Assembly: GCA_029261405.1 (NCBI GenBank)
Contig: JAJDBK010000005.1
Span: 1-32,000 of the forward strand
DNA from: Nitrospinaceae bacterium
Lineage (GTDB): Bacteria > Nitrospinota_A > UBA7883 > JAJDBK01
Direction: 5' to 3'
Length of the DNA: 32,000 nt
Shown: one piece after another, positions 1,442-3,496 of the stretch
Layout of the letters: every line of letters begins with the position of its first letter
Numbering within the stretch: the stretch's first letter is position 1
Notes under the pieces: model-generated
Database searches by the model: none
Seen by the model: only the letters and a program-made list of their open reading frames with translations
Told to the model about the DNA's origin: nothing
Translations under genes and position numbers: made by a program

Positions 1442-2269
1442 TCAGTTCCCATCCGTTATCTCTTCCCCGCAGTGGGGACAACTCCTTTTTTTCTGTTTCC
1501 TTCTCTGTAGCTGGTCCACCAGACCGGAGCCGAGAATACCGGCGGGGAGCGCGAACATGCCGACACCGAGTACAGCGATGATCCCCGCAATGACCTTTCC
1601 AACCACTGTGACCGGGTAAATATCGCCATACCCCACCGTTGTCAAGGTCGCCACACCCCACCACATGGTAGCCGGAATACTGGAAAACACATCAGGCTGG
1701 GCTTGCCTTTCCGCCAGATACATAAAACTTGAGGCGACAACCAGAAGGATGGAGACGATGAAAATTGTTATGACAAGTTCCTCTTTACATTGCCGAAACA
1801 CATTGCCCATTGTCCTCATGGAAGAAGCGTATCTGGATAGCTTGAAAATCCTGAATATTCGAACAAGCCGGAAAGCCCGCAGTGTTATCAGGTCAAAACT
1901 TATAAAGAACTGAAGATAGAACGGGAGTATCGCAATAAGGTCGATCATCGCCATTGGTGACCGAACGAATTTTAACCGCCCCCGGAAACTACCTGAATAG
2001 ATCGGCTTTTCAACGCAACTCCAAGTCCTCAACAGGTACTCGACGGAAAATATAAAGACGGATACAGCTTCAAAAATATGCAAAATAGCGCCATATTCGA
2101 CATTGATGTCATGCACGGTTCCGAGTATGGTGGCGACTATATTCAAGGTGATAAGGGTTATCAGCCCGATGTTGATCGAAAAGGCGAGTCCACTTTTATA
2201 TGGAGCTGTTTCCAGAATCGAATGGATACGCTTTCTGGCGTTTTTATTCACCACCACACTCACCATCAC
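1442..2269 (-). CDS. 6-TM voltage-gated potassium channel with C-terminal CPHCGEE motif
   Basis: S4-like LITLRAFRLVRIFRIFKLSRY. Selectivity filter TLTTVGYGD, then pore helix S6. C-terminal tail RRKQKKRSCPHCGEEITDGN. GTG start (or ATG at 2266), overlapping the end of hgcB. Confidence 0.92.
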   Translation of the reverse strand: MMVSVVVNKNARKRIHSILETAPYKSGLAFSINIGLITLITLNIVATILGTVHDINVEYGAILHIFEAVSVFIFSVEYLLRTWSCVEKPIYSGSFRGRLKFVRSPMAMIDLIAILPFYLQFFISFDLITLRAFRLVRIFRIFKLSRYASSMRTMGNVFRQCKEELVITIFIVSILLVVASSFMYLAERQAQPDVFSSIPATMWWGVATLTTVGYGDIYPVTVVGKVIAGIIAVLGVGMFALPAGILGSGLVDQLQRRKQKKRSCPHCGEEITDGN

Positions 2270-2540
2270 ATCCGAAATCGGGTTCTTTCCCCTTTAACGC
2301 CTGATACATCAACAGCATGGCGCATCCGGCTCCGCTTAAGACCCTGATCGCGTCTGTGGGGCAGTTGACCATACAGGCGCCACACTCCATGCACCGCTCG
2401 CCATGGGCAAGGATGACCGCTCTGTCGCCGTTTATACCCGACTCGAAGACCGCATGGGGGCAGACCTCAATACACCTGCTACATCCGACACACTTTTGCG
2501 CGTTGTATTCGAGAGTATTTATACTGTATGCGTTGAACAT
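2244..2540 (-). CDS. hgcB: Mercury-methylation ferredoxin HgcB
   Basis: 98 aa with two 4Fe-4S motifs, CVGCSRCIEVCP and CMECGACMVNCP. Family-specific extra Cys in LSGAGCAML (C73) and C-terminal cysteines (C91, C95). Directly downstream of hgcA. Confidence 0.92.
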   Translation of the reverse strand: MFNAYSINTLEYNAQKCVGCSRCIEVCPHAVFESGINGDRAVILAHGERCMECGACMVNCPTDAIRVLSGAGCAMLLMYQALKGKEPDFGCDGECGGE

Positions 2541-2542
2541 GC

Positions 2543-3496
2543 TTACATATATCCACCGATGATCTTTACTGTCAGTATCAATATACCGCCGCCGAAAAGG
2601 AGGGTCAAAGGTCTGATGTACCTGAAAACCTCCCGTTTGACTCCGCTGGGTGAGGTGTAGGGTGTGGCGCCGGTAAAGTTAAGGGCCAGAAACGCTGTGA
2701 CAGGCGGCATGGCCAATATATACGCTATAGCCAGAACAGCCTCCCCGTGGAGCCAGGCGTAACCCGCCACCGGGCAAGCCAGCGAATATCCGAGCCATAA
2801 CCCTTTTACGGTATAGTTTGATGACGGCAGGATCGGAAGCAGAATGGGAAACAGAACGGCGCCACCAATCAGAGCTGTGAGAGACGCAACAACGGACACG
2901 CCGCCATCCAGAAGAGCGAGTAGCCCGGTAATGGCAACCACCGGCCCGAATACATGCTTTACCTCTATTGGGATCAGCGCTACCCGGTCCATAAGCGGAA
3001 AACGTACCCGTCTCATGTAGGGGGTGACTTCTCCTGTCGCAAGATATTCGGGCAGATCAACCGCCATAACCGGTCCGTACACAACTTTAAAACCGGTCTG
3101 TTTTTTTACCAGATGAGCGGCGATTCCAGGACCGCCAAGTTGAGGAACGATGATACGGCGGGTCTCGATTTTCTCTTTCAGACCGGTACCGACTATCATT
3201 CTTACCATCTCTTCCGTGCCGAAAGTCCCTTTGCCAGCGGCGCACCAGACGTTTACCCCTTTTGTGTCGAGAACCAATATCCAGCCATCAACACCGCCAA
3301 GCGCGGACCTCAATGCGTCGAAACTTAACGTATAGTTTCCGGTGGCGAAGATCGGTGATTGAAGGCCCGGTTCACCTATACGATACAGGCCCGGTTCGAC
3401 CCTGCGCTCGCCTCGTCTGTAACCGATCCGCGCGAGAAAATGATCGAGCCTGTTGCTAAAAGTTATTCGACTGTCAGTGGGGAGAGAGATATTCAA
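2543..3496 (-). CDS. hgcA: Mercury-methylation corrinoid protein HgcA
   Basis: 317 aa. Signature NVWCAAGKGTFGTEE (cobalamin-liganding Cys85, motif encoded at 3230-3253) and NYTLSFDALRSAL...WILVLDTKG. Multi-TM C-terminal domain ending NFTGATPYTSPSGVKRE. TTG start preceded by GGAGGGG. Confidence 0.95.
   Translation of the reverse strand: MNISLPTDSRITFSNRLDHFLARIGYRRGERRVEPGLYRIGEPGLQSPIFATGNYTLSFDALRSALGGVDGWILVLDTKGVNVWCAAGKGTFGTEEMVRMIVGTGLKEKIETRRIIVPQLGGPGIAAHLVKKQTGFKVVYGPVMAVDLPEYLATGEVTPYMRRVRFPLMDRVALIPIEVKHVFGPVVAITGLLALLDGGVSVVASLTALIGGAVLFPILLPILPSSNYTVKGLWLGYSLACPVAGYAWLHGEAVLAIAYILAMPPVTAFLALNFTGATPYTSPSGVKREVFRYIRPLTLLFGGGILILTVKIIGGYM

Follow-up and report, generated by a model that had tools for sequence, protein, structure and literature searches.

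Does a 32,000-nucleotide stretch of DNA from an uncultured bacterium (contig JAJDBK010000005.1 of assembly GCA_029261405.1, positions 1 to 32,000 of the forward strand; hereafter the window) carry a genuine pair of mercury methylation genes, hgcA and hgcB, and does this pair belong to the genome in which it is found? Members of the Nitrospinota are suspected methylmercury makers in marine waters low in oxygen and even in oxic ones, and we know of no member of the phylum that has been tested for methylmercury production. An earlier note, made from the letters of the window without database searches, had described a complete hgcAB pair. Both minus-strand open reading frames (ORFs) were found as described, at positions 2543–3496 and 2244–2540, and both pass the equivalog cutoffs of their NCBIfam models. 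With a probability of about 0.85, we regard the hgcA-hgcB pair as genuine and intact and as part of the chromosome of an uncultured member of the Nitrospinota, most likely of class UBA7883.

HgcA, the corrinoid protein

The hgcA coding sequence (2543–3496, minus strand) has a TTG start and a TAA stop and encodes the pair's corrinoid protein, of 317 residues. The TTG (3496–3494) directly abuts the TAA stop (3499–3497) of the upstream gene, which encodes a cation diffusion facilitator (CDF) exporter, and a GGAGG is located at 3506–3502, 5 nt ahead of the TTG. No alternative start codon besides this TTG was found in the ORF before residue 97, and the alignment to the family profile already begins at residue 7. 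A 317-residue HgcA (P0001) and a 98-residue HgcB (P0121) identical to those of the window are present in NCBI; the same starts were therefore picked by an independent gene caller.

Family membership was assessed with NCBIfam models. HgcA scored 376 bits against the equivalog model NF040863 (HgcA_corrinoid), for which the cutoff is 275 bits (E = 1.5e-112), and the match is near full length, running over residues 7–311 of the protein and positions 4–322 of the 325 in the profile. In comparison with 92 other HgcA sequences, 78 of the 84 columns that are conserved at 90% or more are retained. The deviations are I49, G53, I110, T112, G122, and Y228, and five of these six are conservative.

The cap-helix signature NVWCAAGKGTFGT was read directly from the sequence at residues 82–94 (3215–3253, minus strand) and contains NVWCAAGK at residues 82–89. 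Residues N82 to G90 are invariant in our HgcA alignment (A1). Reading from the reverse strand also bore out the position given in the note for Cys85, a TGC codon at 3244–3242. This residue is the predicted lower axial ligand of cobalt, by equivalence to Cys93 of HgcA from Pseudodesulfovibrio mercurii ND132, to which that role is assigned (PMC7305189, PMC11588087).

The corrinoid-binding domain spans approximately residues 32–145 (3062–3403, minus strand) and is homologous to the C-terminal domain of the large subunit of the corrinoid iron-sulfur protein (CFeSP). The sole Pfam match of the ORF is CdhD (52.3 bits, residues 32–142), sequence matches in the PDB are to CFeSP (2h9a, 4c1n, and 4djd) over residues 32–145 (E = 4e-11), and several database relatives carry the label "carbon monoxide dehydrogenase". 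These results could be read to mean that the larger ORF encodes a CFeSP/CdhD-type corrinoid protein of the Wood-Ljungdahl pathway or acetyl-CoA decarbonylase/synthase (ACDS), and the small one a generic ferredoxin. However, the likeness to CFeSP is confined to residues 32–145, and the PDB matches take in only the last ~115 residues of chains of 442–446 amino acids. With the ACDS gamma model PRK04165, the score was 71 bits (cutoff 306), from a match restricted to profile positions 323–445 of 450. The CFeSP large subunit (AcsC/CdhE; 2h9a, 2ycl, and 4djd) shares the alpha/beta corrinoid domain and the cap-helix region with HgcA, but has its own N-terminal [4Fe-4S] domain and TIM barrel and no membrane domain, and the residue that aligns with the cap-helix position is not a cysteine. 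Moreover, no CODH/ACS genes were found in the window. An identity as CFeSP or ACDS gamma was rejected, and we give it next to no probability.

A second family to be distinguished from HgcA and HgcB is that of the fused HgcAB-like proteins, which do not methylate mercury appreciably. The fusion model NF043039 gave 187 bits for HgcA and 56.9 bits for HgcB against a cutoff of 285, and the window has two ORFs with a TAA between them; this candidate was also rejected. A placement with non-methylating CdhD/CFeSP proteins, which the note had named among the findings that would refute its assignment, was thus not borne out by either model.

HgcB, the ferredoxin partner

The hgcB coding sequence (2244–2540, minus strand) has an ATG start and a TAA stop and encodes a 98-residue ferredoxin partner with two [4Fe-4S] clusters. 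Its ATG sits 2 nt past the stop of hgcA, on the same strand. The protein scored 100.2 bits against NF040864 (HgcB_ferredoxin; cutoff 99, E = 4.4e-29), with residues 6–95 aligned to positions 5–92 of the 93 in the profile, and Pfam Fer4_7 and Fer4 also match. The E values obtained with the HgcA and HgcB models are both far beyond chance.

The note had listed two CX2CX2CX3CP motifs and Cys73 in this ferredoxin. All of these were found again, together with Cys91 and Cys95, which it had not listed. The first motif, CVGCSRCIEVCP, occupies residues 17–28 (C17, C20, C23, C27, and P28; 2457–2492, minus strand), and the second, CMECGACMVNCP, residues 50–61 (C50, C53, C56, C60, and P61; 2358–2393, minus strand). 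The second motif contains the C(M/I)ECGA signature as it is defined in PMC10839748. Cys73 (2322–2324, minus strand) lies approximately 12 residues past the second motif in GAGCA, for which the family consensus is GVGCA, and when the HgcB tails of 74 further hgcA loci were read, the cysteine of this G-x-G-C-A element was kept in all of them.

At the C terminus, the non-vicinal pair Cys91/Cys95 was read from the sequence as CDGEC (2256–2270, minus strand). Terminal cysteine patterns at the 74 other loci vary widely and include CC, CDC, CSC, CxC, CxxC, and longer spacings, with non-vicinal pairs being common, so the CDGEC tail is inside the range of the family. Mutagenesis has shown that the cap-helix cysteine, HgcB Cys73, and at least one C-terminal cysteine are required (PMC7305189), and all three features are present in the window proteins. 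Read-through of hgcB as a selenoprotein gene was ruled out, as hgcA and hgcB both end in TAA.

Predicted structure and proposed mechanism

The membrane domain of HgcA (2549–2995, minus strand) comprises five predicted transmembrane helices and includes the conserved LNFTGATPYTSPSGVKRE loop. An AlphaFold2 model was built from a 25-sequence alignment and reached a mean predicted local distance difference test (pLDDT) score of 83.2. In this model, an alpha/beta domain is followed by helices at residues 168–196, 199–222, 228–249, 253–272, and 283–316; the pLDDT of the membrane region is mostly 82–96, except in the loop at 271–290. Hydrophobic segments on the Kyte-Doolittle scale match the modelled transmembrane helices, and LNFTGATPYTSPSGVKRE is located in this hydrophobic C-terminal part. 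The C-terminal multi-helix region with LNFTGATPYTSPSGVKRE that had been proposed from the letters is therefore upheld by the sequence, the model, and hydropathy alike. A Foldseek search of the PDB with the model returned as best match 9a0b_A, a deposited HgcAB model (Cooper et al. 2020), with E = 2e-18 and approximately 36% identity, and the next matches were CFeSP chains at E of about 2e-6. We found no crystal or cryo-EM structure of HgcA in the PDB.

The HgcA and HgcB of strain ND132 (P. mercurii, also known as Desulfovibrio desulfuricans) are reportedly the experimentally characterised mercury methylation pair, described by Parks et al. in 2013. The window pair has in common with it the two-gene architecture, the N(V/I)WCA(A/G)GK motif with the cobalt-ligating cysteine, the five-helix membrane domain, the two-cluster ferredoxin, the equivalent of Cys73, and C-terminal cysteines. 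The two systems differ in several respects. Window HgcA is only ~36% identical to the ND132 HgcAB model 9a0b_A in the Foldseek alignment, and the HgcB tail is CDGEC in the window and a vicinal CC in ND132. Furthermore, a CDF exporter gene abuts hgcA upstream in the window and an ArsR-like regulator is absent, and the window host belongs to the Nitrospinota, whereas ND132 is a sulfate reducer.

A mechanism can be proposed from work on ND132 (PMC7305189, PMC11588087), with the chemical steps transferred by homology. HgcA would be a membrane-anchored corrinoid protein, in which the N-terminal CFeSP-like domain binds cobalamin and the five C-terminal transmembrane helices serve as the anchor. Cys85 in the cap helix would ligate cobalt as a thiolate (the "Cys-on" form), and the two [4Fe-4S] clusters of HgcB would reduce the HgcA-bound corrinoid from Co(II) to Co(I). 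S-adenosylmethionine may then methylate Co(I) to give CH3-Co(III), from which the methyl group would pass to Hg(II) to form methylmercury. Cys73 of HgcB, together with Cys91 and Cys95 of its flexible tail, may deliver Hg(II) and carry off CH3Hg+. On this basis we infer that the window pair may be expressed, bind the cofactor, use this methyl donor, and be active in methylation.

Divergence and phylogeny of HgcA

The window HgcAB is a new member of a well-known family, and a rather divergent one. In a search of 5.8 billion proteins, the best non-self match of HgcA was a protein on a 1.4-kb JGI contig (P0002), with 59% identity, or 61% by tblastn. A neighbour-joining tree with 200 bootstraps paired the window sequence with this protein at 99% bootstrap; deeper nodes were not resolved, and a donor lineage for hgcA can therefore not be named. 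The nearest named sequences come from Anaerolineales/Chloroflexi and from methanogens.

Marine "Nitrospina-like" hgcA, from the class Nitrospinia, was reportedly described by Gionfriddo et al. in 2016 and in later ocean surveys. These genes share the phylum and the gene type with the window, but the window locus has an hgcB beside its hgcA, and its host BamA is only 36–40% identical to those of Nitrospina and Ca. Nitronauta. Kop et al. 2024 (PMC10839748 supplement) listed hgcA in four Nitrospinia genomes, in which hgcB was not identifiable, and both hgcA and hgcB in several metagenome-assembled genomes (MAGs) of UBA7883 and also in class UBA9942. A 2025 survey added an hgcAB-bearing MAG of the Nitrospinota, from the Challenger Deep. 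Compared by description only, the UBA7883/UBA9942 loci share with the window the phylum, most likely the class, and the presence of hgcA and hgcB. Since no other HgcA among the 5.8 billion proteins searched is more than ~60% identical, the window may come from one of the MAGs of Kop et al. itself, or else its HgcA may form a lineage of its own in the Nitrospinota.

Through these reports, the occurrence of hgcAB in the Nitrospinota is already published at the level of both phylum and class. The sparse taxonomic spread that the earlier note had ascribed to hgcAB did not hold up: at least 7,932 database clusters matched HgcA in a search limited to 8,000 candidates, and hgcAB in non-Nitrospinia Nitrospinota is on record (PMC10839748 supplement). 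The window pair is thus a real but expected find. It leaves knowledge of the family unchanged, and the phylum-level observation had already been made.

Host and genomic setting

Outside the hgcAB block, the window has genes for BamA, OmpH, LpxD, FabZ, LpxA, LpxI, LolCDE, a ClpB-like protein, FtsH, AroA, SurE, and PurE; a host with this gene set is Gram-negative. Every named top match of BamA is from the Nitrospinota. The best, with 65% identity, is located on a 2.2-Mb contig of GCA_016208975.1, which is the MAG NC_56_23 (GTDB c__UBA7883; f__JACRLM01; PMC10839748 supplement), and identity to Nitrospina and Ca. Nitronauta is 36–40%. The gene order lolC-clpB-bamA-ompH-lpxD-fabZ-lpxA-GFO oxidoreductase-lpxI-PMT_2 glycosyltransferase-Fis-like HTH_8 is common to the window and two Nitrospinota relatives, L083 (GCA_051418015.1) and L088. 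The host is a non-Nitrospinia member of the Nitrospinota, most likely of class UBA7883, as judged from this marker and the gene order.

After the HTH_8 gene, L083 and L088 have split transketolase genes, whereas the window has the hgcAB block; transketolase genes were also searched for in window positions 1–370 and were not found. The presence of transketolase genes at this place in two relatives indicates that the block was probably put there by an old gene gain or rearrangement. A different explanation is that the block is foreign to the genome, being an assembly chimera or a very recent import, for example from Chloroflexota. It could draw on the nearest named HgcA relatives, which are Anaerolineae/Chloroflexi and methanogens rather than Nitrospinota, on those of the CDF gene, which are Alphaproteobacteria, and on synteny with the Nitrospinota relatives, which extends no further than the HTH_8 gene at a distance of 200 bp from the block. 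However, HgcA trees are known to depart from species trees (PMC7438021). Foreign-looking neighbours of HgcA are therefore to be expected, and those found here fit this incongruence. In its composition, the block shows nothing that would point to a recent import or to chimerism. Its G+C content (GC) is 0.53 compared to 0.51 for the window, GC at third codon positions (GC3) is similar, and the tetranucleotide distance of positions 371–4441 falls inside the spread of same-size segments, 13% of which are at least as distant. Taken alone, hgcAB is mildly atypical, with 4.5% of segments equally distant in tetranucleotide use.

Signs of a mobile island were also sought in the window, and no tRNA or tmRNA genes, Rfam matches, transposase genes, or meaningful flanking direct repeats were found. 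Proteins identical to those of the window are found on an 88-kb NCBI contig, and an independent report describes hgcAB in UBA7883 MAGs (PMC10839748 supplement). We consider a foreign origin of this kind quite improbable and retain the reading of a resident Nitrospinota gene pair.

A further difference in gene order was observed nearby. Between the PMT_2 glycosyltransferase and HTH_8 genes, positions 5105–7983 of the plus strand encode a hybrid histidine kinase (CHASE8-HAMP-PAS-HisKA-HATPase-receiver) and a YfiR/DUF4154 protein. The histidine kinase and YfiR-like genes are absent from that position in L083 and L088, and they form a second lineage-specific insertion beside the hgcAB block.

Weight of the evidence for mercury methylation

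Several observations weigh against the reading of a genuine mercury methylation pair in a UBA7883 chromosome. The authors of PMC10839748 themselves regard the presence of the genes alone as insufficient evidence of methylation. HgcB exceeds the NF040864 cutoff by only 1.2 bits, a marginal pass. Residue 112 of HgcA (3161–3163) is a threonine, where 86 of the 93 aligned HgcAs (93%) have a histidine; the equivalent position is also a histidine in CFeSP (NHRK), and threonine is found here in two other HgcAs, one from Geothermincolia and one from Deltaproteobacteria. The cap-helix residues 81–90 are modelled at low confidence (pLDDT of ~52), which would be expected of a model without the cofactor. 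Lastly, the class-level assignment of the host is based on a single marker protein, BamA, together with synteny.

Some of these points, together with others, lend themselves to a different explanation, in which the window encodes an HgcAB-type corrinoid protein and ferredoxin with a non-mercury role, acting on another metal or metalloid or in a C1 reaction, and mercury is not appreciably methylated in vivo. HgcAB has no established native function, and in the Nitrospinota gene presence is no proof of methylation (PMC10839748). HgcA is at most ~60% identical to any other HgcA, the HgcB score is marginal, and the genes around the pair, for a CDF exporter, a K+ channel, and a cyclase-like protein, differ from the ArsR/arsenic surroundings described for other hgcAB loci. 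On the other side, HgcA and HgcB both pass the equivalog cutoffs and fail that of the HgcAB-like fusion (187 vs 285 bits), hgcA and hgcB are separate genes, and every residue required in mutagenesis is present (the cap-helix cysteine, HgcB Cys73, and at least one C-terminal cysteine). A non-mercury role is in our judgement unlikely, and a mercury methylation pair remains the preferred reading.

The locus is complete and apparently intact and comes from outside the Nitrospinia; its sequence is known and its host clearly assigned, and it is therefore a usable candidate for heterologous methylation assays. With its divergent HgcA, it is also of use as an additional reference for hgcA databases and for primer or hidden Markov model design.

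The co-oriented genes around hgcAB

Five minus-strand genes follow one another at the locus and encode the CDF exporter, HgcA, HgcB, a K+ channel, and a 353-residue protein, with successive spacings of 0 nt, 2 nt, an overlap, and 9 nt. The first gene (3497–4441, minus strand), upstream of hgcA, encodes a CzcD/ZitB-like divalent-cation efflux protein with matches to Pfam Cation_efflux (160 bits) and ZT_dimer and to TIGR01297 (CDF, 283.8 bits). The NCBI call for this gene (P0242) is shorter, with 278 amino acids from a start at 4333, and the 314-residue ORF from the GTG at 4441 adds a His-rich N terminus (HHHDH). Its nearest named relatives are Alphaproteobacteria at ~60–64% identity, and the best matches overall, at 67–68%, come from metagenomes (a JGI contig and a hydrothermal vent sequence). 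No inverted repeats were found in the CDF promoter region, and the counts from promoter and terminator scans were at the level of shuffled sequence.

Downstream of hgcB lies the gene for a K+ channel of the voltage-gated type (1442–2269, minus strand; Pfam Ion_trans 108 bits, Ion_trans_2 47.8 bits). The codons at which it could start (2251–2269) overlap the last 4–26 nt of hgcB, an arrangement suggestive of co-transcription. The string ends with the gene (371–1432, minus strand) for the 353-residue protein, which has a divergent class III nucleotidyl-cyclase-like domain in its C-terminal part (residues 166–332). No Pfam or NCBIfam match was found for this protein, even at E ≤ 1; residues 166–332 match class III adenylate/guanylate cyclase domains in the PDB, namely CyaB (3r5g, E = 3e-6) and the Ma1120 cyclases. 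Downstream of the cyclase-like gene, the ~370 nt at window positions 1–370 are free of long ORFs in all frames, and neither a tRNA nor an Rfam match was found there.

From this arrangement, hgcAB and the genes on either side of it (CDF exporter, K+ channel, and cyclase-like protein) may be co-transcribed. A conserved linkage of the CDF gene, hgcAB, and the K+ channel gene was tested against other loci and, on the data at hand, rejected. When the CDF, channel, and 353-residue proteins were compared by tblastn to 85 other hgcA loci, nothing was found except one weak CDF match (26%, on the opposite strand, in L063). The two HgcAs that group with the window in the tree (P0002 and P0026) have different neighbour genes, and of the CDF homologs on usable contigs, the closest two (68% and 65% identity) are not beside hgcAB. 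The commonest conserved neighbour of hgcAB is an ArsR-like regulator (PMC7438021), and none is present at the window locus.

More speculatively, hgcAB could be co-transcribed and translationally coupled with the CDF exporter, with the K+ channel and cyclase-like genes next in line, as a metal-stress or metal-export module in a UBA7883-type lineage. Class UBA7883 is described as having sulfur-oxidation genes and terminal oxidases. We hold such a module to be unlikely; what speaks for a coupling of HgcAB to the CDF exporter is the tight spacing, and this argument is weakened by the lack of conservation elsewhere, so that we consider the coupling, too, unlikely. If true, the module would open a new genomic approach to what HgcAB natively does and to mercury methylation outside strict anaerobes.

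Elsewhere in the window, three minus-strand ORFs without a Pfam or NCBIfam match were noted at 19824–20414 (196 residues), 22877–23779 (300 residues), and 28108–28893 (261 residues). The 196-residue ORF lies between lolC and lolD, and both its position and its size (195–196 residues, no Pfam match) are kept in the Nitrospinota relatives L081, L083, and L087.

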